Source: a virus (lineage: Duplodnaviria > Caudoviricetes). Taken from it: a DNA stretch of 64,000 nt. Location of the stretch: positions 1 to 64,000 of the IMG/VR virus record IMGVR_UViG_3300008740_000001; one strand, written 5' to 3'. The notes under the pieces are model-generated. The model was not told the DNA's origin. It ran no database searches and was given only the letters and a program-made list of their open reading frames with translations. A program made the position numbers and the translations under genes. Shown piece by piece: positions 1,065 to 18,203 of the stretch; position 1 is the first letter of the stretch, and every line of letters begins with the position of its first letter.

Positions 1065-1577
1065 ATGATATATTCACACAAATTAGTAGAATATCCGTTA
1101 ACCGAAGAGGTATTGTACAAAAAAAGCGCCAAAATTGATGAAATTACTGATGAAATTGTTCAATTGGCCCATAATTTAGCTCAAATTATGTATGATAGCG
1201 GCGGAATCGGCATTGCAGCGCCGCAAGTCGGTATTTATCTGAATTTAATCGTTATAGACTGCTCCGAAGAGAAGAATAACACTGTTTATTTGCTAAATCC
1301 CGAAATTGAGTGGCAAACACCAACAACTAGTCATGGAAAAGAGGGATGTTTAAGTTATCCGGGGCTTGTTATGCCCATTACACGGCCAAAAAAGATAAAA
1401 GTCGTTGCAATGAGTCTTGAGGGCGAAAAAATAGAGTTTGAAGCTAGTGGGATTTATGCGAGATGCATATGTCACGAAATTGACCATTTAAATGGGATCC
1501 CGTTCACTCGCAGAGTTTCTCGGCAAGTAAGAAGGCATTTAATGAGGAAATGGGAGCGTAAAAGAGATGATATATGA
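1065..1577 (+). CDS. def: peptide deformylase
   Basis: All three PDF motifs: GIGIAAPQVG, EGCLSYPG, HEIDHLNG. Confidence 0.95.
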   Translation: MIYSHKLVEYPLTEEVLYKKSAKIDEITDEIVQLAHNLAQIMYDSGGIGIAAPQVGIYLNLIVIDCSEEKNNTVYLLNPEIEWQTPTTSHGKEGCLSYPGLVMPITRPKKIKVVAMSLEGEKIEFEASGIYARCICHEIDHLNGIPFTRRVSRQVRRHLMRKWERKRDDI

Positions 1578-2182: not shown

Positions 2183-2191
2183 ACTATTTAC
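2183..2191 (+). promoter_or_regulatory. putative phage late-promoter motif ACTATTTAC
   Basis: Recurrent ACTA(A/T)TTA(T/C) motif in intergenic gaps; 14 nt before ATG 2206. Confidence 0.5.
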
Positions 2192-2205: not shown

Positions 2206-2382
2206 ATGAAGGCTCTATTAAGAAACATATGTATTCTTGCTACTGGGATTAATCTGCCAATTATTGGATTGTCCGTATATCTAGGGGATCTTAATTTGTT
2301 TCTTCTTTCCGCAGCTTCGGCAACATTGACTTTAACGGGCGCCCTTTTCGTATATTCAGAGGATGATGAAGATGAACTTTAA
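2206..2382 (+). CDS. small membrane protein (58 aa, MKALLRNICILATG...EDDEDEL*)
   Basis: Read by hand; two hydrophobic stretches and an acidic tail. Confidence 0.55.
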   Translation: MKALLRNICILATGINLPIIGLSVYLGDLNLFLLSAASATLTLTGALFVYSEDDEDEL

Positions 2383-4678
2383 CAATTGGCGTGAATTTTT
2401 AGCTGAGGCGAAAGCTCAGCCTGATACCCTTTTAAGAGAAATCTCAGAAGATGAAATGGAGCATATCACAGCGGCGCTGGATGAAATGTCTCCCGAATCT
2501 TGGGCATTCAATGAGCTTTTTGAGGGCAAAAATAGAGTAATTATTGATTTTCCTACCCTCGATCCAAGCTCCGATCTGGGCGGATTCTTATTACTCTTTC
2601 AGAACATGGGTTACGATGTCGATTGGTCTAAGGGGATCTTATCTGGTGAGAAGATTTTCCGAGATACTAGCCCTGCGGGCTTTGTAGATGGTCTTCTGAC
2701 CGGGAGATGGGAAACAGGGAAAACAAAAAAGATAAAAATGAAAGTGGGCAAGTTTTTGGCCACAATATATCGTATGGCCAAGAAGAATTATGAAATTTGG
2801 TTAGAATTATCGCGGAAGGATCCCAATGGCCGCGTCACCGGCAACGATATCTTAAAACATCTGGGAGAAGAAGGTGCACAGAGGTATTATCTCACCAACG
2901 ATCAGCTAAATATGTATTTAGGCGATTTGCCCACTGTCTCTCCCAGATCTGCGCCGGAGTTTTGGAAAAAGAAGGCCCAGTATTGGCAACAAAACGCAGA
3001 TTACATTAAAAATAATTTAGATAATGCCGAAACAGACCAATATTCAATTATTATAACTAGGCACCCTATTGATGTGCTGCGCATGAGCGACTTTAACAAT
3101 ATTCAGTCATGTCATTCGCCGCCTAGTCGCGGTGGAGAAGGCAGCTATTATAAATGTGCCGTCGCAGAGGCCCATGGACACGGCGCTGTAGCTTATGTAG
3201 TTAACACAGCAGAACTGTTAGAACAGACCGATTCTAGTGATATTGGAGAGGCTGAAGGGGTAATTCAAGAAGGTGAAGTGTTCGACGATGAGATAAGAGG
3301 CAGCCATGTGGGAATGGGTATACTTCCCTTGAGCCGTGTAAGACTGCGGCAAATGAGGTATTATGAAGAAGAGAATCCCAAGCGCTGGGATGCCGGCGTT
3401 GAATTAGCAGTACCCGAAAATCGAATTTATGGAGATAATATACCCGGCCTAAAAGACCGAGTAACCAAATGGGCCCAGACAAATCAAGAGAAACAAATCA
3501 AGAATGCGCCAAAAACAGATTCAGGGAAATATAATTTAAGTCTTTTCTATAAATTTGGCGGCTCATATGAAGACAGCGGAAGAGCGGACATTGTGGCAGC
3601 GTTGTTCAACGTTAAGCGCGAAGAGTTGACTGGACATCTTAAGCAGCACACAGAAACAGAAGATAACCTTGATGTTAACCTCGTTGGCGGGGTTATGGAA
3701 CAATACTCTCAACAATGTGAAGAAATAGCTGACGGATGGAATTACAGATACCAAGGTGCTGAAGTTGAATATGAAGTTGAAGATGATGGTGCTGGTTCTG
3801 TTTATATTACCATTGGTGCTTCAATGACAATCAAGTGGTCACTAGATGAGTGGAGTCGTTTTCCAAACCAGAATGAGGTTGAGTGGGCCCTAGGCGAATT
3901 GCGAGATATCGGATGGGGGTTCATAAAGGATTCGTATCCCACATTTCTTAAGAAGCCGGGTATCGGAGATGTCGAGGTACATCTTACGTTCGGGATTGAG
4001 CCGGAACACCTGCCAGATTTCGGCGGCCAAGCATATGCATATGATCCGGATATGTTTGAAGATTTCTGTGTTGAAATCAACAAAGTGGATGATGCATACG
4101 AAGCTATTAAAGGCGAGCTTGAAAGGTTTTTTAAGCGCAATGGAGATATGCAAGGCGGTGCATTTATACAAATGAACTATGATATCGAACAGAAGGATAT
4201 TAGCGCCTACGAGTGGGAAATAGAAAATGATAATAAATGGGATCCCGAAGATGCAACAGAGATCATCGCTTCGACAACTCACTATTTCGACCCAGAAGAA
4301 TATGGAATGGATCCAAGAGTAATGTTCCAAGTTTTGGACTCTCGTGAATATCGCTTAGCTGTAAGAACGGCAATTCTTGCTGGGCCTCGTGAAGAGGTAG
4401 GTACTGAGTATTATCTAGATGTGGACTCGTCTGTCGTGGAGCATGCTGGAGAATTAAAATATACTTTACAGTTTAAAGTATACGAACATCACCCAGATAT
4501 ATTGATAGATCTTCTCAAGGCAGTTATAGAGGATATGGATGACGAGGATGTATTAAATTCGATTTTTACAACAACATTCAAACAGGCACAAAATAGTCGC
4601 TTGCCATCGGGCATGCAAAAGGAATTAAATGAAACAGGGCACGTTGTTAAAAGATGGAAGCAGTTTTTAAGGGGATAA
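2363..4678 (+). CDS. large acidic putative virion/internal protein
   Basis: 771 aa; N-terminal MNFNNWREFLAE leader and C-terminal KRWKQFLRG; likely start 2372. Confidence 0.75.
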   Translation: MMKMNFNNWREFLAEAKAQPDTLLREISEDEMEHITAALDEMSPESWAFNELFEGKNRVIIDFPTLDPSSDLGGFLLLFQNMGYDVDWSKGILSGEKIFRDTSPAGFVDGLLTGRWETGKTKKIKMKVGKFLATIYRMAKKNYEIWLELSRKDPNGRVTGNDILKHLGEEGAQRYYLTNDQLNMYLGDLPTVSPRSAPEFWKKKAQYWQQNADYIKNNLDNAETDQYSIIITRHPIDVLRMSDFNNIQSCHSPPSRGGEGSYYKCAVAEAHGHGAVAYVVNTAELLEQTDSSDIGEAEGVIQEGEVFDDEIRGSHVGMGILPLSRVRLRQMRYYEEENPKRWDAGVELAVPENRIYGDNIPGLKDRVTKWAQTNQEKQIKNAPKTDSGKYNLSLFYKFGGSYEDSGRADIVAALFNVKREELTGHLKQHTETEDNLDVNLVGGVMEQYSQQCEEIADGWNYRYQGAEVEYEVEDDGAGSVYITIGASMTIKWSLDEWSRFPNQNEVEWALGELRDIGWGFIKDSYPTFLKKPGIGDVEVHLTFGIEPEHLPDFGGQAYAYDPDMFEDFCVEINKVDDAYEAIKGELERFFKRNGDMQGGAFIQMNYDIEQKDISAYEWEIENDNKWDPEDATEIIASTTHYFDPEEYGMDPRVMFQVLDSREYRLAVRTAILAGPREEVGTEYYLDVDSSVVEHAGELKYTLQFKVYEHHPDILIDLLKAVIEDMDDEDVLNSIFTTTFKQAQNSRLPSGMQKELNETGHVVKRWKQFLRG

Positions 4679-4702
4679 ACCAATTCCGAGGTCATAATTA
4701 TT

Positions 4703-5125
4703 ATGAAAGGTTATGTTAAAGCGTGGAAGGAATTCTTGGAAGAAGCAAAAAACAATAAAGACTCCAAAGAGATAGCGAAAGCTGTTTTATATAAAGAGGA
4801 TAAAGTACTTTTGCTTAAAAGATCTGACTACATGAAAAAGCATGCCGGCGAATGGGATCTACCCGGGGGCCACCTTATCGAAGGAGAAGACATCACAGAT
4901 GGCCTTATAAGGGAGGTATGGGAGGAAACCGGCCTACGTATTAGAAACCCTGTTAGACTCCACTCAAACGGCAATGACACGTATTATAAGGCATCTATGC
5001 CAGACTCTGAAGTTGAATTAAGCGATGAGCATACCGAGCACAAAATGTACACATTGGATGAAATTGAAAGCTTGGACTTTCCAAGCAAGTATAGGAAAGC
5101 AGTCGAGGAAACCATAAATGAATAA
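4703..5125 (+). CDS. Nudix hydrolase with WKEFLEE leader
   Basis: Nudix box GGHLIEGEDITDGLIREVWEETGL. Confidence 0.9.
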   Translation: MKGYVKAWKEFLEEAKNNKDSKEIAKAVLYKEDKVLLLKRSDYMKKHAGEWDLPGGHLIEGEDITDGLIREVWEETGLRIRNPVRLHSNGNDTYYKASMPDSEVELSDEHTEHKMYTLDEIESLDFPSKYRKAVEETINE

Positions 5126-6230
5126 CAAAAAGTGGAAACAATTTTTAACAGAAGCAAACCAGCCTCAGTGGCACGGCCTTGCGTTCGATGGCCGGAACCC
5201 CACCGAAGAAGAGATCAAATTGATGGATATCTTTCCGGGCAGCGGTGCACAAGCTCTGGAATTGGCTGAGTTGACCGGCAATGAGGAAATGGCGGTTGAA
5301 TTCCGCAAGATGCTTAAGCCAATCAGAGAAATAATTGCAAAGATTGAAGTGACCATAAAGCAAATCCGTAACGGGACCATGACGAGCGAGAGGCTGGATG
5401 TTATAGCTACAGAATTGGAGCTGGATGCAGAGAAGGCATGGATGAGCAGCCGCAACCACGAGTGGTTCGTAGCCGAGGACTGGTTTGAGGACAGCCTGTA
5501 CGAAATGAAGGATTATATTTGGCACCACGGCATGACTTATAGCGGTGTGGTTGGTCTAGGAAATGTTGCATCAGAAGAAAAGTCGAAGGAAGATTTGGAT
5601 AAGATAAAAACATGGGCAGGAATGGCCGGTCAGGTTGAATTACCCTTAAGTGAAAAGAAATTTTCAGACTTCGAGGATGGGCCCGGGCAATGGACAGATC
5701 TTGCAGTGGCAGATCTGAGAAATCCAGAAAATATAGATTTGTCTATTGAGTTATACAATTTGATTGCCAATGCATATTCACATATGAAGCCCCCGGGGCA
5801 TTTTGATTTTAAAACACCAGAAGATATTCCTTCTGATCATGATGTGTGGGCGGCTGTTAATATAGATGATGATCCTGAGCCTGACGCGCTAAGGGTTGGT
5901 AAAAACAAACCAAGTGGATTGAAATTGACAGCTAGTGGTCACGATGGCAGCAGAGAAGGAAAGGACGCATACATTAACAAAACAGCAGAAATGCTATTGC
6001 AAAATGGATATTATGCAGAAATGTCTAAAGGTATTGCACATTTAATGATAAAATATCACAGTGTACCACATGTTGGAGAAGAAGAGACGGTTAGAAAAGT
6101 ACTAGGAAAGGAAATAGAATGGATCGGGCCCCACCCCGAGGGCAAGTATCCCGGCTATGATGGTTGGTATATTCGCGATATTAGTGGACATAGAGAATTA
6201 AAAATCATGTTAGGAACACCTAACGCTTAA
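5118..6230 (+). CDS. hypothetical protein with WKQFLTE leader, probably two domains
   Basis: MNNKKWKQFLTEA N-terminus; internal LSE motif separates a helical half from an alpha/beta half. Confidence 0.7.
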   Translation: MNNKKWKQFLTEANQPQWHGLAFDGRNPTEEEIKLMDIFPGSGAQALELAELTGNEEMAVEFRKMLKPIREIIAKIEVTIKQIRNGTMTSERLDVIATELELDAEKAWMSSRNHEWFVAEDWFEDSLYEMKDYIWHHGMTYSGVVGLGNVASEEKSKEDLDKIKTWAGMAGQVELPLSEKKFSDFEDGPGQWTDLAVADLRNPENIDLSIELYNLIANAYSHMKPPGHFDFKTPEDIPSDHDVWAAVNIDDDPEPDALRVGKNKPSGLKLTASGHDGSREGKDAYINKTAEMLLQNGYYAEMSKGIAHLMIKYHSVPHVGEEETVRKVLGKEIEWIGPHPEGKYPGYDGWYIRDISGHRELKIMLGTPNA

Positions 6231-6242
6231 ATTGGAGATAAA

Positions 6243-6440
6243 ATGGCTAGAGGCAAAGTGACGACATCAGAGGCTCTCAAGAATGAAAGAGACTCCTTAC
6301 AGGCTAAGAATAGTAAATTGGAGCAGCGTAATGATATGCTGCTGCAGCGGATTGGCGGTCTGAGGGCTCACATCATTCAGAATAATGTAGAGGCCGAAGA
6401 AATTGCTAGATTGCTTGAGCGAATTCTGCTTGATTCGTAA
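6243..6440 (+). CDS. small coiled-coil protein
   Basis: Heptad pattern; GGAG SD upstream. Confidence 0.65.
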   Translation: MARGKVTTSEALKNERDSLQAKNSKLEQRNDMLLQRIGGLRAHIIQNNVEAEEIARLLERILLDS

Positions 6441-6462
6441 AAGTAAACTAAAATACAATTTT

Positions 6463-6494
6463 AAGCGGGGATTCTTCCCCGCTTTTTTGTTTTG
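6463..6494 (+). terminator. intrinsic terminator
   Basis: AAGCGGGG-attctt-CCCCGCTT 8-bp hairpin followed by TTTTGTTTTG. Confidence 0.85.
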
Positions 6495-6505
6495 CTGTAA
6501 TGTGA

Positions 6506-6514
6506 ACTATTTAT
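6506..6514 (+). promoter_or_regulatory. putative late-promoter motif ACTATTTAT
   Basis: Directly after the terminator and 7 nt before ATG 6522. Confidence 0.55.
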
Positions 6515-6521
6515 TGGTGTT

Positions 6522-6836
6522 ATGAAAAATCCTTTTACTCAACACCCTCAAGAAGTGGGTGAGACCTATTTTCAACATATGTGTGCCGCGCTTGGAATTA
6601 CCGGGAGGCTAGCGCTAGCAACTCACTGTCATTTAATACATGCAGTCTTCCCCTTTATCCACCCTCCCCTTGGAACTGATTTGGAAAATTTAATAAAAGA
6701 ACTCAAAGAGTGTTTACCGAAAGAACGCGCCAAGAAGGAATGCCACCTTGATGAAGCACTAAACAACCTTGTTGGTGATGAACTCGAAGAATATGAAGAG
6801 GCTATTGATCTTTACACGACCTACGGAGGAGATTAG
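6522..6836 (+). CDS. DUF6356-like protein
   Basis: N-terminal FTQHPQEVGETYFQHM...HLIHAVFPF pattern recalled for this family. Confidence 0.6.
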   Translation: MKNPFTQHPQEVGETYFQHMCAALGITGRLALATHCHLIHAVFPFIHPPLGTDLENLIKELKECLPKERAKKECHLDEALNNLVGDELEEYEEAIDLYTTYGGD

Positions 6837-6847
6837 TTGGATAAATT

Positions 6848-7453
6848 ATGAAACTACTATTTGAAAATTGGCGCAAGTATTTGAACGAGGGCCAGTGGGA
6901 CTTTGAGAATATCCCACCTTCACAACGAGCGAGAAATATTATAGTAGACGAATTTCTCACCGAAGATGATCGTCATATAGTTATTGTGAAAACTCTCGGC
7001 GGGCCCGTGGCTTTTTACAGAAGCACTGGTGGTGGAAGTGGATCGTGGACAAAAGGAATGTACTTACCCTTCGATGGTGTGAGTCCAGACGGGCCCGGGA
7101 CAGGATCAAAATTTTGGTTTGCTAAAATGGATCCAAGCCATCCACAATCTGGGGAGAAAAGCTCGAAAGTTCCCGAAGAGGGAAGTGAATTTGATAAAAT
7201 TGGAAAACACTTATCTTCTATATACAAACAAAGTGGAGGTGGTCAAAATGCCGGTGAATTTATGAATTCGATTGGATATAAATCTTCCGAAGAACTTGGA
7301 ATTAAGGCATCTCCGGTGTATGGAAACCCGCTTTACGATGCTATGGCCACTAATCTCTTTCTTCAAAAATGGAGAGCGCTGGGTGCATTAGGAAACGATT
7401 ATCGTTGGTGGGGAATAGACGAGATAGACGGCTTTAAGGCGGAGAAAAAATGA
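6848..7453 (+). CDS. MKLLFENWRKYLNE-leader protein, unknown cargo domain
   Basis: Leader motif; AFYRSTG...YLPFDG core. Confidence 0.75.
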   Translation: MKLLFENWRKYLNEGQWDFENIPPSQRARNIIVDEFLTEDDRHIVIVKTLGGPVAFYRSTGGGSGSWTKGMYLPFDGVSPDGPGTGSKFWFAKMDPSHPQSGEKSSKVPEEGSEFDKIGKHLSSIYKQSGGGQNAGEFMNSIGYKSSEELGIKASPVYGNPLYDAMATNLFLQKWRALGALGNDYRWWGIDEIDGFKAEKK

Positions 7454-8085
7454 AACTCCTGTTTGAAAATTGGCGAAAGTATTTAAATGAGTCTTTAGAA
7501 GGATTCAAGTATCTTTCTGCGTCACCATGGTCTACCGCAGATGCAAAACAAGAGTGGGGAGAAGAAGTAAATACATCACTTGAAAACGGCGACGATTATA
7601 TTGCGCAGCGCTGGCCCGGTTTAAGCAGAGAGGTAATAGAAGAAAAGTATCCTTTTTTGCTCTCTGCGGAAGATTTTGCAAAAACCCTAAATTCTGCACC
7701 TATACAAAATTTGCCACTATCACAAATGAAAAATATACACAATCATGCGCAAGTTTATGACATTATCGAAATGTATGAGAACGGTAGCTCATCGGAAGAA
7801 GTGCAAAAAGCTATGTATAGTTTCTTTAAAGGTACTGGTGTTAAATCAGATCCAGATGCATCTGGAAAAAGTTATACCAAAGAATCTAGCTATCAAAGAT
7901 GGGTGGATATGTTTAAAGAGTCTGATTCAATAGACAAGCCATCTGTGGTGTTGGAGTTGCCAGATGGCGGATTAGCTCACGTTAGTGGACAAACTAGACA
8001 AACTGGAGCTTTAACAAGCAGAAAAATTGTTCCATATGCTGTTCTAAGGCCAATTCAAGGAGAACAGAATGAAACTCCTGTTTGA
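7450..8085 (+). CDS. MKLLFENWRKYLNE-leader protein, weak ParB/Srx-like C-terminus
   Basis: Leader motif; PSVVLE...HVSGQTR resembles the ParB GxxR motif (weak). Confidence 0.65.
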   Translation: MKLLFENWRKYLNESLEGFKYLSASPWSTADAKQEWGEEVNTSLENGDDYIAQRWPGLSREVIEEKYPFLLSAEDFAKTLNSAPIQNLPLSQMKNIHNHAQVYDIIEMYENGSSSEEVQKAMYSFFKGTGVKSDPDASGKSYTKESSYQRWVDMFKESDSIDKPSVVLELPDGGLAHVSGQTRQTGALTSRKIVPYAVLRPIQGEQNETPV

Positions 8086-9106
8086 AAATTGGCGAAGATT
8101 CTTAGCTGAAGATGAAACAACCATTGAAATTCCCAACTCTGCAAAGAATTTAGCAAAGCAATGGCTTAAGGACGCACAGGAGCTACTTGGTAACCAAGGG
8201 CTCTATGTTAACAAAGAACTTGGCCGAGGCAAGATGGGTATTGTCTATGAAGTGGAAGACGAGAATAGCGGCAGGCGTCTAGCTGCCAAATTCGTCAAGA
8301 AGGATAACCCCAATGCACGTCGAGAGCGGGAAAATTATGAATGGATGATGAATAATCGTGAGCGTCTTCCAGAAGATGTTTCAAAACACTTGGTAGAAGT
8401 ATACGACATCATAGAAAGGGATACAGTATACATTTTTCTAATCGAGCTTTTGGAGGCGCCCGATAAAAAAACTGTGCGACAACTATTAGCGCTGGGCGAT
8501 TATGATGATATGGCTCGGCCCGATAAAGAAGCGCGTATTTTCAAAGATGAGGGCGCTATTTTTGATTTGGTTAAAGACGTGGTTATGTCAGCAGACTCAC
8601 TAATGGCTCAGGCTAATGCTAGTCAAGCTGAAACAAAGTCTACCGTAAGAGAGATCCATCGAAAGTTTTTATCTGGCGAAGGCGCCTCTAGGGAGTTAAT
8701 AGGCAAAGTTTACTTTGGTGATTTGGACTATTACATGGGTGCAACCGAGGATCGCCGGCGACTCATTAATCTTATACTATCGGAATTATTATCCTTGATC
8801 GAGCCTGAAATGGTCGAACACATTGCTAACTCTCTTGCAAGGATAGTTGATTCTAAAACAAATTACTTTTTACAAAAGCAGGTAATTCCCATCCACGATT
8901 TCTCCCCGCGTAGTGGTCTTACGGGCGGCGCTGAGGGATATACGAAAGAAGCTTTCCCAGAAGCGGACAGTCTCATGAGAGCGATGCAGCATTTGACTAA
9001 GAAGGAACAGTTTAGCCCGGGCGATATTCATGTGAAGAACGTGATGGCGCGCCCGGGGTCGAGAGAACTAGTTATTATGGATTTAGGATTATTTAAAACC
9101 TTGTAA
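8069..9106 (+). CDS. Ser/Thr protein kinase-like protein with MKLLFENWRRFLAE leader
   Basis: Gly loop LGRGKMGIVY, AAK, helix-C Glu, catalytic DIHVKN, DLG. Confidence 0.85.
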   Translation: MKLLFENWRRFLAEDETTIEIPNSAKNLAKQWLKDAQELLGNQGLYVNKELGRGKMGIVYEVEDENSGRRLAAKFVKKDNPNARRERENYEWMMNNRERLPEDVSKHLVEVYDIIERDTVYIFLIELLEAPDKKTVRQLLALGDYDDMARPDKEARIFKDEGAIFDLVKDVVMSADSLMAQANASQAETKSTVREIHRKFLSGEGASRELIGKVYFGDLDYYMGATEDRRRLINLILSELLSLIEPEMVEHIANSLARIVDSKTNYFLQKQVIPIHDFSPRSGLTGGAEGYTKEAFPEADSLMRAMQHLTKKEQFSPGDIHVKNVMARPGSRELVIMDLGLFKTL

Positions 9107-9117
9107 TAATTATTAAT

Positions 9118-9645
9118 ATGAAATTTTTAATTCCCATTCTATTGCTGGCCGGTCATACTACGACACCAGTGTCTCACGTCGAAGCGGGATTTGTCTTTGG
9201 CCCGCCAGTACGACAAGCCTCGTGGGCTCTGCCTCCAGATGTTATTGTTTGTCACGATGCTCCGGTTAAGGAAGGAAGGGTTCAGCAAGCTGTCGCCTTT
9301 TGGAGAAACCTAGGCTATGATATCGGCACTGTGACCATGGCCGAGAAAGATGATTTTGCTTGTGCTCGTGATTTGGTCCTGTATGGCGAAATTATGGTTA
9401 AACTCATTGGACAAGATTTTCAAATTGGTAAACATTTGGCAACAACGCAAACTTGGTTCAACGCAGAATCAAAAACCATATTTAAAGCCAAGATCCAAAT
9501 AATGAATGGTTGGGGTAGCACAGAACGAATCTTAGAACACGAACTTGGGCATGCCCTCGGCTGGCGTGATTATAACCAAACAGGGCACATCATGAATACT
9601 AACTGGAGTATGGGCGGATATCGTACTAAAGGATTACACTTATGA
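9118..9645 (+). CDS. secreted metzincin metalloprotease (matrixin/snapalysin-like)
   Basis: Signal peptide MKFLIPILLLAG; HELGHALGWRD (HExxHxxGxxD) and Met-turn GHIM. Confidence 0.8.
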   Translation: MKFLIPILLLAGHTTTPVSHVEAGFVFGPPVRQASWALPPDVIVCHDAPVKEGRVQQAVAFWRNLGYDIGTVTMAEKDDFACARDLVLYGEIMVKLIGQDFQIGKHLATTQTWFNAESKTIFKAKIQIMNGWGSTERILEHELGHALGWRDYNQTGHIMNTNWSMGGYRTKGLHL

Positions 9646-10151
9646 AACTTTTATTTGAAAACTGGCGGAAGTATTTGGCTGAAGACCAGCCGGCCTGTAT
9701 AACTATTCAGGATTATCGACAAGGTATAATAGCTGCCGAAGATGAAGAGCATCGAGAGGAGATGATCCAAAAGGGTAAAGAGACGGCAGTAAAGGTAGGC
9801 ATGTTCGTTCTGGGCTTCATTCCGGGGGCGGGGCCTATCGCGGACGTAGTTGGTGGAGGAGAGTTCATAAAAGACCTGTATGATACTATTAAGGATAAAG
9901 ATGTCGAACTAGATGACCTAGATGACTTCCCAGTACTGAAGAAGCTTAGAATGGACAAAGAATTGGTCAAAGCTCTAGAGGATGACATTCTCAGTGATAT
10001 CGACGAAAAATATCTGGCCTATTTAGACAACTTAGAGCCTAGCACTTGCATTGATCAGGTACCAGATATTAACGAATTTATTCGCAACTATGTTGCCCAA
10101 CTGACTAGTAATCATGTGGTGATCAGCGATCAATCGGGAGGAAGTGTATAA
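9642..10151 (+). CDS. MKLLFENWRKYLAE-leader protein
   Basis: Leader motif; Gly-rich hydrophobic segment VGMFVLGFIPGAG. Confidence 0.75.
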   Translation: MKLLFENWRKYLAEDQPACITIQDYRQGIIAAEDEEHREEMIQKGKETAVKVGMFVLGFIPGAGPIADVVGGGEFIKDLYDTIKDKDVELDDLDDFPVLKKLRMDKELVKALEDDILSDIDEKYLAYLDNLEPSTCIDQVPDINEFIRNYVAQLTSNHVVISDQSGGSV

Positions 10152-10784
10152 ATGAAACTCCTATTTGAAAATTGGCGAAAACACATTCTTATCAAAGAAG
10201 AAAAAGGTAAGCACCAGATCTACTGTGATATGGATGGTGTTCTTGTCGATTTTGTGAAAGGAGCAGTCGACCAAATTAATGCCGATATCAGAAATAAAGC
10301 CTTAACGGGTAAAAAATTAGATGCCCTGCGCGCTAAATTAGAAGAGATTGGCAAAAAGAAAATCGAAGAGGATGACTTACACATCAATTCCTCACTGGCC
10401 ATAGAAGAGGCTAGGAAGTACATGTACAGCCGCTTGGCTGGTGATAAGGGGTGGTGGGCCGAACTGCCATGGATGTCCGATGGAAAGCGATTATGGGACT
10501 TTATAAAGAAGTACGATCCATATATTCTAACGACACCGATGAACAGTCCAGCCTCTCAAGAAGGTAAACTTATTTGGGTCGAGTACAATCTTAGTATTCC
10601 CCGCGCAAGAGTAATCTTTTCACATAAAAAACATGAGCATGCCAAAGATGGGGAAAACCCAAATATTTTGATTGATGATTTCCTAGGAAGAAATATTAAG
10701 CCTTTCAACGAAGCGGGCGGAATTGGAATACATCATACTAGTTCGGATCTATCTATTGCTGAACTTAAGAAATTAGGCTTTTAA
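10152..10784 (+). CDS. HAD 5'(3')-deoxyribonucleotidase-like protein with MKLLFENWRKH leader
   Basis: YCDMDGVLVDF (HAD motif I), ILTTP, ILIDD (NT5C-like). Confidence 0.85.
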   Translation: MKLLFENWRKHILIKEEKGKHQIYCDMDGVLVDFVKGAVDQINADIRNKALTGKKLDALRAKLEEIGKKKIEEDDLHINSSLAIEEARKYMYSRLAGDKGWWAELPWMSDGKRLWDFIKKYDPYILTTPMNSPASQEGKLIWVEYNLSIPRARVIFSHKKHEHAKDGENPNILIDDFLGRNIKPFNEAGGIGIHHTSSDLSIAELKKLGF

Positions 10785-10810: not shown

Positions 10811-10819
10811 ACTATTTAT
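10811..10819 (+). promoter_or_regulatory. putative late-promoter motif ACTATTTAT
   Basis: In the intergenic gap before the 969-aa ORF. Confidence 0.55.
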
Positions 10820-10846: not shown

Positions 10847-13756
10847 ATGAATCTACAAGATTATAACTTATTGACAAAAGAAGAGATTAGTGAAGTGGTC
10901 CAAGAAGTGTTGGCCGGCGCTGGAATTGTGCAAGAGGCAGACTACCTAGAAAAAGATGGACCCATGTCCAAGAGGCGGAAGCCGACCCCTGTTGACGCAG
11001 AAGAAGAAGGCAATGCCCCGGACAATCCGATGGGGGGCGCGCCAAGGCGGGGAAGTGGAACAAGATATCAGTCGGGGGCGGGATACACGGATAGCAAAGG
11101 GAAGCCGATAGACGCCACTGGCATGCCCAGACCGGATGATGGACAGGCGAAGAAGCCGGCAGCGCAGAGCCAAACTGGCGGTGTCGACACGAAGGCAATG
11201 CCCGGTACGCCGACAAAGCATCCAGAAAGGCCTGCGCCCGACAAAAAGAGGAAAGGCGTGGTAAATCGGGTGCTCGGAGTGGGAGATGACCCTCAATACC
11301 CCCGCCAGCAGGCCCATGCCGCGATGGGTCAAGACGCACAAAATAAAGGTATCTCTTCCGCTACGGCCGACACTCCCTCCGTCGCGGACACCGTGAACCC
11401 CGATAAGTTGAAGAGAGGCGCCCCCGATGCAGTGGCCAAGGCGGGCAGTCAAGAAGATGGCATGCCCGATTCCGGTGCGGAAGGCGACTTTGGCGATATG
11501 AACGACGCATGGTTTGCGCCGGGATCGTCGACTTTGCCTGACAAGGCCGTTAGAACGATTGCCCAGAAGTTTGGCGACAATAGAATGGCTCCTCTGCAGG
11601 TTATCGACTTTTATATCCGCGCTGGACATGGTGATACGGGTGGACGAACCCATATGATGGCTCAGCAAGAACGTGGGATGCAAATCACTCGAATAAAAGG
11701 ATTAATTCAGAAGGCTGCTGCATCTGGCGATTCAGGTCACAAGATGAATGTTAAGAGAGCCCTCGATTCCCTTTTATATGACGCCGCCATGAAAGGCGGT
11801 GGCAGAAGCGACGGGGGTGAAGGTGGCAAAGATGGTAAAGACGGCAAAGATGGTCGCGACGGCAAAGATGGTCGCGACGGCAGAGACGGTACAGACGGCG
11901 GAAACGGCGGCGGTGACGGTGGCGGTGACGGTGGTGGTGAAGTAACGCCTGAGCCACCGCCAGAAGATCCTGATGACCCGGGTGCTGGGCTGCCGATTCC
12001 TGTTAACAAGAAGTGGTCCGGTGAAGAAAGAAAAATGGCCGGCCTTGATAAGAGCGCGGCAGGAAGTCTTGCTAGCCAGCTAGCTAAGCTGTTTCCCGAT
12101 GTTGATAAGAGCATTATTACACAGATTCTTAAAGATGTCGCAGGTCAACTTAAAGCACAGGGTCTTCCCATTCAAGAATCCCTCAGAAAGTTTATTGTAC
12201 AAAGAGTTTTGGAAGAGTACATTGTAAAGAAGACAAAAATTCTTATGGAATTTCAAGACACGACGGGTAAGTATACCGGTGCTGCTGCCGGCGAAGAGTC
12301 GCCGGGAGGTGGCGGTGATGAGAAAGAAGAAGCCGCTGTTAAAAAGCTCAGTGTGTACCTGAAGAAAAATAAAGAGTTTTACGAAAATGTGGAATTGGTT
12401 CTCAGCGCTAGTGACGATATTGATGATTTAGTCTCCAATGCAAAGGACAATCTAGAACTTCCGGAGGTTACTCTTGAAGAAGGTCTCAAGAAGGATCTGA
12501 AGAAATGGATCGAAAGAGGACGTTTTGGACAGGCTAGCCGAGAGTTGCTTACTAGATTGCAAAAGGCTAAGAAATATATTGCGCACGAATTGGCCAAGGT
12601 TGAAAAGTATATTGCTGCTGATAAAGATGCATCTCGACAAAAAGAAGATGTAAAGACGGCTATGGAGAAATTTCTCAACTTGTTCAAGGGTGGTCAGGAA
12701 GTACTTGACGCGTATAGTGATAGGGATCAGGAGCCCGAGGAAACAACCGAAGAGCCACCCGAGGAACCACGAGAACCACAAGAATTAAGTGGCGACGTTG
12801 TTCTCGACGCACTCATGGCACGGCTGAAAGAGTTGGACCTTGATTCTGATGATGGTATGTACCAAGCTACACAACCGGGCAACGAACAGGCGTATCTTGG
12901 CGGCTATATGTTTTATAAGGCAATGCTTAAACTTCAAAAGGCACTTACAAAGAATCCAAATGCGTCTACACAAGAATTGATTGGTCTCGTTCAGAAAGAA
13001 CTTGGCGGAAATGAACATGGTTCTGGAAGTCCTTACTCTCCGAAGAGAAAGGGGGCTGTTGGTGTAAGTGCCGATCAGCGGCGCGCCACTAAATATGGCC
13101 CGGGCCCGGTTAACGAAGCCATGCTTCTTGAAAGGGTTGAGGCCATTATCGAACGTGCGGCCGGATTATTCCTTATTAATCTTTTAAAGGAAGCAGTATT
13201 ACTGACCGAGCAAGAAGGTGAGGGTGGCGATATCATGAAGTGGCTTGAAGACACTATTGCCAAGTTCAAGAGCTATCAGTTAGATGATTCCAGTCGCGCT
13301 GTGAAAGCATCAAGGGCGGCTAGGGGCGCCAAGGATCCCAAGGATCTTTCAGAGCCCCAAGGAGACGAAAGCGCAGAAGATGTGGTTAAGAGAGTGGCTG
13401 CTGATGTAAAAGCCGGCAAGGCAACAAAAGCAGATCTTGCAGCCGCCAGACAAAAGGCTAAGGCCGGCGGAGATGAAACGGCGCGCCGAAGCGGGCAAGC
13501 TGGTACAATTAATATGAAGTCTGTTGTCGGGCCTCGACTCAAGCAGGGTGGACTGGCTCTAAAGAACCCAGACGGAAGCCCGGGCCCCGGGGCCAAATTG
13601 CAAAAGAAGATGGGTAAAGTTATTCGTCGATTCATTAACAAGCAATTGAAAAGAATGGGCAAAACTGATATTAAGGTCATTGCAGAAAGTAAAGTACTTC
13701 AGACAGAACTGAGGAAAGTTGTTGTGAAACACCTTAAAGAATATGAACTTCTATAA
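10847..13756 (+). CDS. large low-complexity putative head/internal protein with collagen-like repeat
   Basis: 969 aa; Gly/Pro/Asp-rich; (GxD)8 repeat; many (L/I/V)-x-E motifs. Confidence 0.75.
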   Translation: MNLQDYNLLTKEEISEVVQEVLAGAGIVQEADYLEKDGPMSKRRKPTPVDAEEEGNAPDNPMGGAPRRGSGTRYQSGAGYTDSKGKPIDATGMPRPDDGQAKKPAAQSQTGGVDTKAMPGTPTKHPERPAPDKKRKGVVNRVLGVGDDPQYPRQQAHAAMGQDAQNKGISSATADTPSVADTVNPDKLKRGAPDAVAKAGSQEDGMPDSGAEGDFGDMNDAWFAPGSSTLPDKAVRTIAQKFGDNRMAPLQVIDFYIRAGHGDTGGRTHMMAQQERGMQITRIKGLIQKAAASGDSGHKMNVKRALDSLLYDAAMKGGGRSDGGEGGKDGKDGKDGRDGKDGRDGRDGTDGGNGGGDGGGDGGGEVTPEPPPEDPDDPGAGLPIPVNKKWSGEERKMAGLDKSAAGSLASQLAKLFPDVDKSIITQILKDVAGQLKAQGLPIQESLRKFIVQRVLEEYIVKKTKILMEFQDTTGKYTGAAAGEESPGGGGDEKEEAAVKKLSVYLKKNKEFYENVELVLSASDDIDDLVSNAKDNLELPEVTLEEGLKKDLKKWIERGRFGQASRELLTRLQKAKKYIAHELAKVEKYIAADKDASRQKEDVKTAMEKFLNLFKGGQEVLDAYSDRDQEPEETTEEPPEEPREPQELSGDVVLDALMARLKELDLDSDDGMYQATQPGNEQAYLGGYMFYKAMLKLQKALTKNPNASTQELIGLVQKELGGNEHGSGSPYSPKRKGAVGVSADQRRATKYGPGPVNEAMLLERVEAIIERAAGLFLINLLKEAVLLTEQEGEGGDIMKWLEDTIAKFKSYQLDDSSRAVKASRAARGAKDPKDLSEPQGDESAEDVVKRVAADVKAGKATKADLAAARQKAKAGGDETARRSGQAGTINMKSVVGPRLKQGGLALKNPDGSPGPGAKLQKKMGKVIRRFINKQLKRMGKTDIKVIAESKVLQTELRKVVVKHLKEYELL
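11825..11896 (+). repeat. collagen-like 9-bp tandem repeat, GKDGKDGKDGRDGKDGRDGRDGTD
   Basis: Eight G-X-D triplets followed by a Gly-rich run. Confidence 0.9.
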
Positions 13757-14255
13757 TATAGAAAATAAATCTGGCCTCGATCTTCAAGAAATGGGTGAGC
13801 TTCTTGGAAGCTTTATGCCCTTTTCTAAAAAGCGCATGGGATATGATCAGCCGGTCACAATAACCTTTGAATCAGATGAGGAAAACGGAAACAATATATT
13901 AGGTAAAACAGCTTACTATAATCCTGAGTCGAAGAGTGTTACAATATATACTGATTCTCGCCATCCTAAAGATATGATGCGCTCATTGTCGCACGAGTTA
14001 GTCCACCATACACAAAATTGTCGTGGAGAATTTGACAAGGCGATGGAAATGGGTGAAGGATATGCTCAGAAAGATGAACATCTGCGAGAAATGGAAAGAG
14101 AAGCCTATGAAACAGGCAATATGTGCTTTCGTGATTGGGAAGACACATATAAACACGATTTAGCAACTAATTATACTGATATGAGTGCTTTGGTTACCGA
14201 AAAAAGGGAGCACTTATTTAATCTTTTAACCAAACAAATTATTAAGGAGAATTAA
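13743..14255 (+). CDS. zincin-like HExxH protein
   Basis: RSLSHELVHHTQ plus downstream EREAY Glu. Confidence 0.7.
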   Translation: MNFYNIENKSGLDLQEMGELLGSFMPFSKKRMGYDQPVTITFESDEENGNNILGKTAYYNPESKSVTIYTDSRHPKDMMRSLSHELVHHTQNCRGEFDKAMEMGEGYAQKDEHLREMEREAYETGNMCFRDWEDTYKHDLATNYTDMSALVTEKREHLFNLLTKQIIKEN

Positions 14256-14966: not shown

Positions 14967-17297
14967 ATGCGTCGATTATTACTTGAAGGCGGTGTTGCAG
15001 GCCACCTGTCACATTTGTATGACAACCGCGAATTAACTGCTAACCAAATGTTTAAGATTCTGTCTCTCGCGTCTCAAGGCGAACTAGAGGGTACAGAGAA
15101 AACTGATGGATACAATATTTATCTAGGTTTCAGAGACGGCCAAGCTCGTTGGGCGCGCAACAAAGGTGATATGCGCAGCGGTGGTCGGACTATGGAAGAA
15201 CTGATTAACCGTATATTTCAAGGTGGCGAACAAGTAAAAGACGTGTATGTACGCGCATTTAAAGGATTTGAGGACTTTGCCAACAAGTTAGGGCAACGTG
15301 TCCAAGCAAATATCTTTGGCGAAGATGGATCCATTTTCTACAACACAGAAATTCAAGGTCCGGGCGCGAACAACGTTGTTAATTACGATGCAAATGTTGT
15401 GTCGATTCATCACGGGAACCATAAGAGATATGATGCTGAAACCGATACTGTAGAAATTATCGATGCGGAAGAAAATTCTAGATATCTCGATCATGCTTTA
15501 AACCGAATTGAGCAAGAAGCTCACGAGCAGAACTTTACTGTTAAACGCACCGCCGTATTAAAGTTGCGTCGTCTTGACGATGACACCGATTTGCGTATTG
15601 CTATAGCCAAGATCGAAAAAACTGGCTTTATAGGGGATATGACCATCAACGAATACCTTGAATCTAAAATTCTCCCAAAAATTCAACAGAAGGTGCCGTA
15701 CATGGATAGTAACGTGCATCAAATGATGGTCGACTATATTCTAGATAAGCGAAATGAGGCTGGTCAAAAGACGGTCAGTATGAGATCTATTTACAAAGGC
15801 TTCCCAGTCGAGCAACGTGATGTGGTGCGGAATCTGTTAAGTACCGGCGGGACTTTAATCAAGGCTGCAATCTGGCCTATTGAAGATGCAATTCACGATT
15901 TTGCAGTAGAGCTTTTAAGGGGCCTAGAGAGCGTTTACATCCTCGATAATCACGCAGAGGTAACCAGACTCAAAGCTGAGGTGGACGCCGCTGTGAGGGC
16001 TATACAGGCCTACTCTGGGCCGGGTGCGGATGAAGCTCGTAATGTGTTGCAGCACCAGCTGAGAAAAGTCAAGCACTTGGATAATATTAACTCTGCTGTC
16101 GAGGGATTTGTGTTCCACCATGGCGGTCAGATGTATAAATTCACAGGTAACTTTGCACCAGTTAATCAAATCTTGGGGTTGTTCCGATATGGACGTGGAA
16201 ATGTTCCTGCAATCTCACGGGACAATCTTGACGCCGACGACGGTGGAGAGCTTGAAGAAGCAGAAGTTGTTTCTCACGCCACCCCAGAGCGTGTAATTGC
16301 TATCTTGCCGGGCGCTTTTAAGCCTCCGCACAAAGGCCACTTTCAGATGGCCCTACATTATGCCGAGATTGCCGATGCAGTTGCGGTGTATATTAGTAGA
16401 ATTCCCAGAGAGGGCGTGGACTTTGGAACATCGAAGGCGCTGTGGGACATTTATATACAAGCCTCTCAAAATCCAGCAGCTAGCAAAATCGCAGTACTGC
16501 CAGAGCCCTCCGAAAATGCATCCCCTGTAGGAGCAGCCTTAGAGTTCGTTGGAAACGAAAGCCAAAGCCCAAACTTGGCTCAGCCGGGTGATTATGTAAT
16601 TTTGGGCGCCAGTTCAAAACCAGATTCAAAGGGTAACCCAGATTATATGCGATTTAAAGATGCACAAAAGTATTATGCGCACGGAGTACTGGGTGGAGAT
16701 CTGGAAGATACCAAGAAATATGCCTTTAAGGTCTCCGAAGAGCCATTAAGTGCACGAGATCTTAGAGCAGCCATCAGCAGAGGGGACATTGAAATCATTA
16801 AACGCTATATTCCAGACGGAGTGCTGCGACATGAAGGTGGTTTTGAGTCGGTTCTTGATCTGTTAGATGTTACGGTCGCACCGGTGGAAACTTTAGAAGA
16901 AATGCTTATTCGGATGGTTGAAGAGCGTTTAAACGAGATCAGCGAAGCTGTCGGTGATGATAGCGCTGGATGGCCAACAGTGCCTCCTACTCGATCCAAG
17001 GGGACGCCATGTATCAAATATAGTCGACAAGGCACCCAGATGCTTTATAAAGGCGATGAGGGCTACGAGGAATGTGTGAGCGAGAAAGAATTAGAAGAAA
17101 TAAGCGCGATGGGCGGCGGTGCAGTCCAAGGCGCGATGATAAGTACCGGTACCGGCAACGGTGCATGGGATGGGGCCGCAACTAAGAAGTTTAATAAGAA
17201 GCAAAAGAAAGATCAAAAGCTCAAAGGAACAAAACTTACCAAAGAGGCGCTAATTGAAAAAGTAATGGACTATTTACTAACACAGGCGGTAAACTAA
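14967..17297 (+). CDS. fusion of a ligase-like (KxDG) domain and an HxGH cytidylyltransferase-like domain
   Basis: GHLSHLYD...TEKTDGYN in the N-half; PGAFKPPHKGH in the C-half. Confidence 0.75.
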   Translation: MRRLLLEGGVAGHLSHLYDNRELTANQMFKILSLASQGELEGTEKTDGYNIYLGFRDGQARWARNKGDMRSGGRTMEELINRIFQGGEQVKDVYVRAFKGFEDFANKLGQRVQANIFGEDGSIFYNTEIQGPGANNVVNYDANVVSIHHGNHKRYDAETDTVEIIDAEENSRYLDHALNRIEQEAHEQNFTVKRTAVLKLRRLDDDTDLRIAIAKIEKTGFIGDMTINEYLESKILPKIQQKVPYMDSNVHQMMVDYILDKRNEAGQKTVSMRSIYKGFPVEQRDVVRNLLSTGGTLIKAAIWPIEDAIHDFAVELLRGLESVYILDNHAEVTRLKAEVDAAVRAIQAYSGPGADEARNVLQHQLRKVKHLDNINSAVEGFVFHHGGQMYKFTGNFAPVNQILGLFRYGRGNVPAISRDNLDADDGGELEEAEVVSHATPERVIAILPGAFKPPHKGHFQMALHYAEIADAVAVYISRIPREGVDFGTSKALWDIYIQASQNPAASKIAVLPEPSENASPVGAALEFVGNESQSPNLAQPGDYVILGASSKPDSKGNPDYMRFKDAQKYYAHGVLGGDLEDTKKYAFKVSEEPLSARDLRAAISRGDIEIIKRYIPDGVLRHEGGFESVLDLLDVTVAPVETLEEMLIRMVEERLNEISEAVGDDSAGWPTVPPTRSKGTPCIKYSRQGTQMLYKGDEGYEECVSEKELEEISAMGGGAVQGAMISTGTGNGAWDGAATKKFNKKQKKDQKLKGTKLTKEALIEKVMDYLLTQAVN

Positions 17298-18203
17298 ATG
17301 GATGATTTAAAAAGAATAGAGTTTCTTAAAGAACTCAAAGCTCGCAAGCTTATGCGTGAAGCAGTAAGAAAAGCAATTCATACTGTTTTAGAGAAGCGGA
17401 ATGAAGAAGACTTTGAAAGATTGCAGATAGAACAAGAAGAGACAGCACTCAGGTCTTATATCAGGTCTTACTTGTCCGAAACGTCGACGCAAGACACGGA
17501 TCCCGCACCTCACAGATCGACGGGAATTAACGTGCTCTCGGACCTGTTGAAGAAGATCATTCCCGTATTAGAAGACGACTATAAGATTCTTACTACAGAC
17601 GCTGATCAACGCGCATCTTTCCGTGCACACGTAATTCATGGTGTCCAGAACTCATTGGCTCCGCTGCAGTCAATTGATGACGTTGGGCCAGATGCCGGAG
17701 CTGAAACTCTCCAAGAAATTGATGTACAAGTTGGAGGTGCAGACGAGGATGCCTTTATAGACATCGAAGACACTGGCGGTGAGGACGAAGAAATTTCTCC
17801 TGAAGAAGAGTTTGGTACTGGTCTAGACGGACAAGATTTGACCGGCCGGAACATGGCTTATTCTTCCTTCAAAAAGATCGAGCGGAATATTCTAGATTCT
17901 TACGAACTGCTGAGCAACAATGAAGACAGGGAACTTTTTTACGACTACCTTATCACTAACCTTAAACTATATTTTGATAAGTTTGAAGATGAATTGGCCG
18001 GTAATCTAGATGAACCCACTACACCAGAGTACGAAGATGCCGCAGATGAAATGGCTGCAGATGAAGCTGGAGAAGACTTTGCACCCGCTGGAGAAGAACC
18101 GATGGCTGGAGAAGATGACGAGGAGTTAGTCGAGTGGCCCTTTTCTATAACAAACGGCTGGGGACAGAAGCAGAAAGGTAAGGGCAAGGGCAGAAAAGGC
18201 TAA
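17298..18203 (+). CDS. acidic putative head-associated protein
   Basis: LMREAVRKAI and YLSE motifs; acidic C-half. Confidence 0.7.
   Translation: MDDLKRIEFLKELKARKLMREAVRKAIHTVLEKRNEEDFERLQIEQEETALRSYIRSYLSETSTQDTDPAPHRSTGINVLSDLLKKIIPVLEDDYKILTTDADQRASFRAHVIHGVQNSLAPLQSIDDVGPDAGAETLQEIDVQVGGADEDAFIDIEDTGGEDEEISPEEEFGTGLDGQDLTGRNMAYSSFKKIERNILDSYELLSNNEDRELFYDYLITNLKLYFDKFEDELAGNLDEPTTPEYEDAADEMAADEAGEDFAPAGEEPMAGEDDEELVEWPFSITNGWGQKQKGKGKGRKG

Follow-up and report, generated by a model that had tools for sequence, protein, structure and literature searches.

The internal proteins of bacteriophage T4 are basic and bind DNA, and T4 Alt is a large enzyme with propeptides at both ends. Mullaney and Black reportedly described in 1996 a capsid targeting sequence (CTS) on the internal proteins of this phage. 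The CTS is present on IPI, IPII, IPIII and the Alt propeptide, and it is removed by the prohead protease gp21 (PMC3012670, PMC9026906). It is a propeptide of 10-19 residues that gp21 cleaves after L/I-x-E, and in IPIII residues 4 and 7 serve targeting and residues 8 and 10 serve processing (PMC9026906). The ip loci of T-even phages are hypervariable and CTS-bearing, and have been proposed to counter the first-response defences of the host (PMC3012670, PMC9026906); IPI acts against GmrSD, and IPIII is required on ECOR17 (PMC9391042). In the phiKZ-like giants (SPN3US, phiKZ, 201phi2-1), a gp21-related protease trims the N-terminal propeptides of many head-internal, ejected proteins (PMC5694885, PMC7411985, PMC10052503), these propeptides being mostly longer than 100 residues and cut at A/S/G-x-E (PMC5694885). 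Here we analysed the first 64 kb (the window) of the 203,859-bp IMG/VR record IMGVR_UViG_3300008740_000001 (G000 denotes the whole record), where a run of genes for otherwise unrelated proteins starts with a common N-terminal leader, MKLLFENWRKYLxE and variants. We consider it likely that this leader, together with a second class found elsewhere in the genome, is a T4-type capsid targeting sequence, and that at least 12 unrelated tagged proteins, several of them intact enzymes, are probably packed into the head and injected with the DNA.

The leader was found on the following genes of the window.

2372..4678, + strand: 768-aa candidate cargo with the 12-aa leader MNFNNWREFLAE (2372-2407), without Pfam or PHROG match
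4703..5125, + strand: Nudix hydrolase (PF00293, E 3e-16, residues 27-132) with the 14-aa leader MKGYVKAWKEFLEE (4703-4744)
5118..6230, + strand: 370-aa candidate cargo with the 12-aa leader MNNKKWKQFLTE (5118-5153), followed by a helical insert and then a conserved C-terminal domain
6848..7453, + strand: 201-aa candidate cargo with the leader MKLLFENWRKYLNE (6848-6889), function unassigned by Pfam or PHROG
7450..8085, + strand: 211-aa candidate cargo with the leader MKLLFENWRKYLNE (7450-7491), possibly ParB/Srx-like
8069..9106, + strand: atypical protein kinase (PF00069 N-lobe, E 5e-8; phrog_2361) with the leader MKLLFENWRRFLAE (8069-8110)
9642..10151, + strand: 169-aa acidic candidate cargo with the leader MKLLFENWRKYLAE (9642-9683)
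10152..10784, + strand: HAD 5'(3')-deoxyribonucleotidase (phrog_2643, E 1e-19) with the extended leader MKLLFENWRKHILIKEE (10152-10202)

An earlier, sequence-only reading of this DNA had reported N-termini beginning MKLLFENWRK/R at 6848, 7450, 8069, 9642 and 10152 and variant leaders at 2372, 4703 and 5118, and all eight were present at these positions. In agreement with that reading, the first tagged gene likely starts at 2372 and not at 2363, as a GAGG Shine-Dalgarno sequence lies 9 nt upstream and the ortholog in the relative G023 begins MNINDWRSFLQE. A genome-wide census of the motif added a ninth member of this class, which we call class A, at G000 94610 (MRRDLFYENWRNFLLKEE), outside the window. 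The leaders occupy 12-17 residues at the extreme N-terminus of the nine proteins. The further claims that the payloads are unrelated to each other and that the leader mostly ends in L-x-E were both upheld: once the first 20 residues were removed the best pairwise E value was 0.09, and [LI]-x-E falls at residue 12 or 14 in 7 of the 8 window genes. The leader is an add-on to its payload, in that the family profiles begin beyond it (at residue 27 for the Nudix domain and residue 19 for the nucleotidase). When the pattern W-[RK]-x-[FYHW]-[LI]-x-[ED] was searched in six frames, it returned 7 matches in the 64-kb window, each of them a tagged N-terminus, and over the whole 204 kb one further N-terminal member (94610) and one unrelated match. 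The DNA form of this motif gave 7 matches versus 0.47 +/- 0.63 over 100 shuffles, of which none reached 7. In an all-versus-all comparison of the N-termini of the 238 genes called in G000, tagged pairs scored 39-74, the 99.9th percentile being 28.

The same all-versus-all comparison brought out a second leader class (class B), MK[FI]TKxx[IL]xx[IL][IL]xEE, which has the geometry of class A. At least 4 genes of G000 carry it, at 101232 and within 157063-159644, outside the window:

G000 101232: class-B leader MKFTKKQIKKIIEE
G000 157063: probable class-B leader MFLTEDLLKKLISE
G000 157506: class-B leader MKITRTRLKEILAE
G000 158284: class-B leader MKFTKSDIREIIAE
G000 158688: class-B leader MRVSMSQLQKIIKE

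We compared the geometry of both classes with the T4 signal. T4 IPII and IPIII begin MKTYQEFIAE|A, as read from the T4 record, and T4 gp23 is cut at FLTE|A. Counted from the Glu, T4 residues Y4, F7, I8 and E10 are positions -6, -3, -2 and 0. Right-aligned at their own Glu, both leader classes read phi(-6)-x-x-phi(-3)-[LI](-2)-x-E, which amounts to four conserved columns (W/phi, Y/F/I, L/I and E), so that, as in T4, a hydrophobic or aromatic residue (phi) occupies the two targeting positions and L/I and E the two processing positions. The variant NWREFLAE|A of the 2372 protein comes close to YQEFIAE|A of T4. The motif phi-x-x-phi-phi-x-E begins exactly at residue 8 in 10 genes versus 0.37 expected from its internal frequency, and lies within the first 12 residues in 19 genes versus 4.5 expected. 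The likeness to the T4 system includes a short tag, ending in L/I-x-E, that stands at the N-terminus of proteins not otherwise related, and it extends to cargo genes that vary between relatives and to the arrangement of Alt, since a leader-like motif is found at each end of the 2372 protein: its C-terminus is VKRWKQFLRG (4646-4675), a copy of the leader core, and its ortholog in G023 (43% identical, leader MNINDWRSFLQE) ends in VKSWKSFLRG. The differences are equally clear. The leaders here are 12-14 residues long and not 10, with MKLLFEN or MKITKxQ as their N-terminal half; two classes coexist in one genome, with at least 12-17 candidate cargo proteins versus 4 in T4; and the cargo is mostly acidic and includes many enzymes and multi-domain proteins of up to 160 kDa, and none of it resembles a T4 internal protein in sequence. 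With the phiKZ-like phages the system would share protease-trimmed N-termini, and paralogs of those phages can likewise share an identical N-terminal 15-mer; when the likeness was tested, however, the leaders here proved to have 12-17 residues with L/I/V at -2, and their L/I-x-E ending is that of T4.

We next consider how the leader is conserved among relatives. An IMG/VR scan for DNA encoding MKLLFENWR returned at least 119 stretches, which yielded at least 175 open reading frame (ORF) starts and at least 119 unique complete proteins. A word-based protein search limited to residues 1-40 found only 2 proteins and is useless as a census. Conservation was counted at the positions that the search pattern does not fix, and the counts that follow are among the matches listed. 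Position 11 is Y/F/H in 113 of 119 proteins, position 12 is L/I/V/M in 110 and position 14 is Glu in 98, and from residue 15 onward no residue is found in more than 32 of 119. Conservation thus runs up to the predicted cut and no further. A reversed-pattern control gave 0 copies in the tested class-A genomes, each of which has 1-8 copies of the leader, usually clustered and, with one exception, on the coding strand. One might suppose that the shared 5' ends are instead a DNA-level feature, namely a recombination junction for cassette shuffling or a translation-initiation cassette, given that the five main copies within G000 share most of 26 nt and that payloads are shuffled among relatives. 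Over 134 distinct copies, however, the amino acids are invariant while the codons vary freely, with six codons for Leu3, six for Arg9 and both for Glu14, and this free variation indicates that selection acts on the peptide. In the DNA upstream of the leaders only a generic Shine-Dalgarno sequence is conserved, and the residue pattern, but not the DNA, is retained in the variants. Recombination there probably arises as a by-product, which has also been proposed for the T-even ip loci. A DNA-level cassette or initiation element was rejected on the codon variation, and we regard this explanation as hardly credible.

If the leader is a T4-type targeting peptide, then the genome should provide the enzyme that removes it. 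The G000 record has direct terminal repeats and is rated complete, and a crude gene call placed 221 of 238 genes on the + strand. Judged by its genes, the source is an uncultured marine phage that is a distant relative of T4: its proteins are 26-38% identical to those of T4, and its capsid protein is ~30% identical to that of T4. Among cultured phages the capsid protein is nearest to those of Microcystis phage Mel-JY01 (49%), Flavobacterium phage immuto (45%) and Rhodothermus phage RM378 (43%), and its nearest record overall is an unannotated 484-kb uncultured phage. The leader island gave zero blastn matches against 50,697 phage records. The head and tail genes identified are listed here.

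G000 102114: large terminase, by profile or homology
G000 103700: portal, by profile or homology
G000 107445-108044: Peptidase_S77, the gp21-type prohead protease (PF03420, E 1e-30; phrog_207, E 3e-53)
G000 108041 and 119384: scaffold-like proteins
G000 120460: major capsid protein, 614 aa
G000 122767: neck adaptor
G000 125555: sheath

A gp21-type protease is thus encoded in the genome, as in T4. In a BLAST alignment, the T4 gp23 cut L63-T-E65|A66 is matched by L57-R-E59|A60 of the G000 capsid protein. Because L-R-E|A stands at the T4-homologous cut, the substrate motif of the protease is likely conserved, and the specificity of the G000 enzyme is likely that of T4 gp21. All class-A genomes tested form one clade, with capsid proteins 58-81% identical, and the PF03420 protease was found in 10 of 10 class-A records that were at least 80% complete, the negatives being fragments. 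A motif scan also picked out the protein encoded just after the protease gene, and a second protein further downstream has a leader of the T4 length:

just after the protease gene of G000: 147-aa protein starting MKKEELKAALKPLIKE, a candidate leader by motif scan
G000 171886-176136: 1416-aa protein starting MKSMKKILAE, a 10-mer and candidate leader; no family match

A protease in the genome would also allow the leader to be a propeptide whose removal activates the enzymes, in the manner of a zymogen and with no packaging, the cut being made either by gp21 or by a protein with an HExxH motif. The leader does precede catalytic domains, and the island contains one HExxH protein and is flanked by another, the latter at 13743-14255 (77% identical in G023) and the former as follows.

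9118..9645, + strand: signal-peptide protein with a HELGH zinc-protease motif (HELGHALGW), without leader and without Pfam or PHROG match

A 12-14-residue helix lying outside the domain is, however, unlikely to inhibit Nudix, HAD and kinase folds alike. The 9118 protein has a signal peptide and is probably exported; although it is encoded inside the island, it probably stands outside the tagged system. The [LI]-x-E ending fits the specificity of gp21, which acts inside proheads (PMC9026906). We regard activation in place of packaging as quite improbable.

We then asked with which genes the tagged genes would be expressed. The genome has 19 + strand copies and 2 - strand copies of a promoter-like motif, ACTATTTA(T), and nearly all of them lie 15-100 nt before gene starts. 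Within the island and its flanks it occurs at these sites:

2183..2191, + strand: promoter-like ACTATTTAC, heading the first leader-gene unit; syntenic in G023
6506..6514, + strand: promoter-like ACTATTTAT, heading the second leader-gene unit
10811..10819, + strand: promoter-like ACTATTTAT, before the unit of a 969-aa low-complexity protein; syntenic in G023

The motif precedes every leader unit (2183, 6506, 94583, 157027 and 171847), and a copy of ACTATTTAT lies 39 nt upstream of the 1416-aa protein at G000 171886. It also precedes a scaffold-like gene and the capsid operon (119336), the sheath gene (125474), the neck adaptor (a variant, at 122740) and other structural genes. Other ACTATTTA sites are at 17269 and 56207 in the window and at G000 89469, 108759 and 116770. 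Relatives retain the positions of the motif, 17 of its copies being forward and 1 reverse. The two units of the island are separated by a strong terminator, and sigma-70-like sites within the island are not above chance.

6463..6494, + strand: intrinsic terminator ending the first unit, with a 9-bp GC-rich stem and a T run

This gene context makes ACTATTTAT a candidate late promoter, distinct from the one of T4. The sequence-only reading had held that its proposal would fail were the leader found mainly on early genes; as far as sequence tells this is not so, since the tagged genes follow the motif of structural genes and not host-type early promoters.

The leader could also be a docking or regulatory peptide that has nothing to do with the capsid, for instance one that binds a partner or chaperone, an amphipathic helix that binds membranes, or an N-terminal degradation signal that shortens the life of the enzymes. 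It is short and N-terminal, selection acts on the peptide, and it is predicted to be helical: a single-sequence AlphaFold2 (AF2) model of the 7450 protein, poor overall (mean pLDDT 40), has a DSSP helix at residues 2-23, and a likewise poor five-sequence AF2 model of the 5118 protein (mean pLDDT 49, confident only at residues 281-370) has a helix at 4-12. The MK-phi-phi-phi-x5-phi start of the leader is similar to one class of E. coli ClpX recognition signals that lie at the N-terminus. This start is missing, however, from some members of class A itself (MNNKKWKQFLTE and MKGYVKAWKEFLEE) and from class B, and the residues kept across the variants and both classes are instead those at -6, -3, -2 and 0, with [LI]-x-E as the end. 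Beyond the Glu the conservation is lost at once, and the promoter-like motif is common to tagged and structural genes. The leaders have neither a hydrophobic core nor a twin-arginine motif as for secretion. The genome likewise has no radical-SAM enzyme: a tag for such an enzyme was rejected because PF04055 matched nothing in the complete 204-kb genome, the control being positive in 14 of 14 genomes. Taken together, we judge a docking role apart from the capsid to be unlikely.

The T4-type capsid-targeting reading, which the sequence-only reading had put forward by analogy, is thus supported by the gp21-type protease, the L-x-E|A of the capsid protein, the sharp boundary at the Glu, the selection on the peptide, the four T4 positions and the shared promoter-like motif. 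In each computational test that might have gone against it, the outcome favoured this reading. The docking, cleavage, packaging and injection that we infer would run as follows. Late in infection the tagged proteins would be made together with the head proteins, and during prohead assembly the amphipathic N-terminal peptide of 12-14 residues would dock the cargo onto the scaffolding core. The gp21-type prohead protease would then cut after the Glu of [L/I]-x-E and free the mature protein inside the head, from which the cargo would exit with the DNA at the next infection. By this reading G000 would encode at least 12-17 candidate cargo proteins.

Several observations weigh against the capsid-targeting reading. 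In mature form, all cargo proteins but one (pI 8.0) are acidic (pI 4.1-5.7), unlike the basic internal proteins of T4. Among the class-A matches listed, ~18% of proteins lack Glu at position 14, and within G000 the Glu of gene 10152 is displaced (ILIKEE), the shift in 10152 and 94610 being 3-4 residues. The T4 late promoter TATAAATA is absent from G000, where 2 occurrences on the + strand are neither of them informative. The co-occurrence with gp21 is weak evidence, as the whole clade is T4-related. The closest cultured phages are without both leaders, so nothing experimental is transferable from them: the ENWR pattern gave no match in Flavobacterium phage immuto, RM378 or Mel-JY01, the class-B pattern gave none in immuto and RM378 and one, at chance level, in Mel-JY01, and the leader patterns gave none or one chance-level match in three cultured Synechococcus phages. 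Lastly, nucleases (HNH and RNase_T) and an HD domain are found among the cargo of relatives and would adjoin packaged DNA; T4, for its part, tolerates fusions of the CTS to nucleases (PMC9026906).

The payloads behind the two tags are numerous. Class A accounts for at least 67 payload clusters among the unique proteins listed, and Pfam assigned NUDIX, Pkinase, HD, RNase_T, HNH, DnaJ, PGDYG and a few DUFs to some of the 67 representatives, most of which were unmatched. Comparison of the relatives indicates that the cargo is modular, in that the tag stays constant while the domains behind it are exchanged, fused or lost. Homologous Nudix domains occur behind MKLLFENWR leaders either alone or at the C-terminus of tagged proteins of 378 aa and 509 aa, and the nucleotidase domain is found alone or at the C-terminus of a 719-aa leader protein. 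In relatives the C-terminal domain of the 5118 protein follows the leader directly; here a helical module of ~165 residues has been inserted between the two, and a relic L-S-E (5646-5654) stands at the old leader junction, directly before the conserved C-domain. This L-S-E may be an internal protease site, at which the 5118 protein would be split in two. As in the T-even ip loci, a constant leader is combined with interchangeable payloads clustered in variable islands. The locus differs from them in belonging to a distant clade, in the larger size of the island and in payloads with recognisable catalytic domains.

For class B, an IMG/VR scan with M-K-I-[ST]-K-x-x-L-x-x-I-I-x-E returned at least 120 stretches. 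Among the matches listed there were at least 163 unique proteins, with a median of 105 residues, in at least 144 payload clusters, and their consensus is MKITKxQLKQIIKEEL. The protease family was found in 16 of 20 large class-B records and in 5 of 5 complete ones of 187 to 367 kb, and the uncultured 484-kb GenBank record LR756508 has at least 6 class-B leaders (152404, 155070, 189254, 190291, 190857 and 219570). On these genomes class B is widespread in large T4-related phages, its spread within IMG/VR being very wide, and in four relatives of G000 the islands mix class-A and class-B genes.

The principle is already known from T4 and the T-even phages (PMC3012670, PMC9026906, PMC9391042), and no relevant paper came up when the literature was searched for the peptide string. 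What is new is the scale, with a very large marine payload pool, the enzyme cargo, and the coexistence of two tag classes that share a geometry. Should the tag function as it does in T4, the set of injected proteins in this abundant group of uncultured marine phages could be read from their genomes. More than 200 unrelated payload clusters lie behind the two tags, and these, most of them without known function, are the first place to look for host take-over and anti-defence factors. Being short, with sharp boundaries, the tags could also serve as new parts by which foreign proteins are loaded into phage heads. A broader proposal, which we hold to be doubtful, is that the two classes form a sequence-readable address code common to T4-related phages from ~145 kb to megaphage size, which would pre-load active enzymes and sort them by place, copy number or order of ejection. 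In this code class A would be confined to the marine clade, and class B would be common to phages reaching 484 kb in size. The changeable kit of kinase, Nudix, nucleotidase, HD, exonuclease, HNH and DnaJ proteins would take effect within seconds of the start of infection, possibly by destroying nucleotide immune signals or by modifying host proteins, and the injected effectors of uncultured phages could then be listed from sequence alone.

We turn to the individual payloads and their neighbours in the window. The sequence-only reading had assigned Nudix, kinase, HAD nucleotidase and ParB-like domains. The first three stand, on Pfam or PHROG matches together with their motifs; the ParB-like assignment of the 7450 protein is a weak lead, with an Atlas feature score of 0.90 to ParB_N and no Pfam or PHROG match. 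The ortholog of this protein is 69% identical and has the leader MKLLFENWRKYLME. The Nudix box of the 4703 protein is intact at residues 56-78, and in the nucleotidase, whose profile begins at residue 19, DMDGV lies at 26-30. The kinase has its G-loop at 52, K74, DIHVKN at 319 and DLG at 338, and its homologs in relatives also bear leaders. Its build is odd, with a spacer of ~190 residues after the G-loop and Lys; the protein stops 5 residues past DLG and is without activation segment or C-lobe. A homolog of the 9642 protein has the leader MKLLFENWRGYILKEE. A domain is common to the 2372 protein and the 1416-aa protein of G000 171886, and an Atlas search with this domain returned no more than viral clusters without a name and weak structural rows of GNAT-like type. 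Residues 40-146 of the 5118 protein gave only generic helical bundles in a fold search (Z up to 8.9, which is background for helical models). Pfam and PHROGs returned nothing for the proteins at 10847, 14257, 14967, 17298, 94610, 157506, 158688 and 171886. One further protein of the window may belong to the cargo, and two genes without leader head the units of the island:

17298..18203, + strand: possible further cargo of 301 aa starting MDDLKRIEFLKE, with ACTATTTAC 29 nt upstream
2206..2382, + strand: small hydrophobic ORF of 58 aa from the ORF list, without leader, heading the first unit; conserved in G023
6522..6836, + strand: DUF6356 protein (PF19883, E 3e-16), without leader, heading the second unit

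The 17298 protein does not match the full motif and is a candidate only; its ortholog retains LEFLKE. A DUF6356-like N-terminus was seen, by eye and unscored, in the island of the relative G024. Downstream of the island, the 969-aa low-complexity protein (window 10847-13756) contains GKDGKDGRDG repeats and is conserved in G023. The second HExxH protein (window 13743-14255), whose identity in G023 is given above, has 170 aa and a weak match to Peptidase_M91 (E 0.002). Immediately upstream of the island lies a peptide deformylase gene (window 1065-1577; phrog_2890, E 1e-38), which is present in G023 too. A tRNA region at ~20-27 kb follows the tagged genes, the Nudix gene among them, at a distance of a few kb, and in T4 the 65.4-73.9 kb region groups ipII, ipIII, e, nudE (a Nudix gene), the tRNA cluster and ipI, an arrangement that loosely resembles the 2372-27000 neighbourhood of the window.

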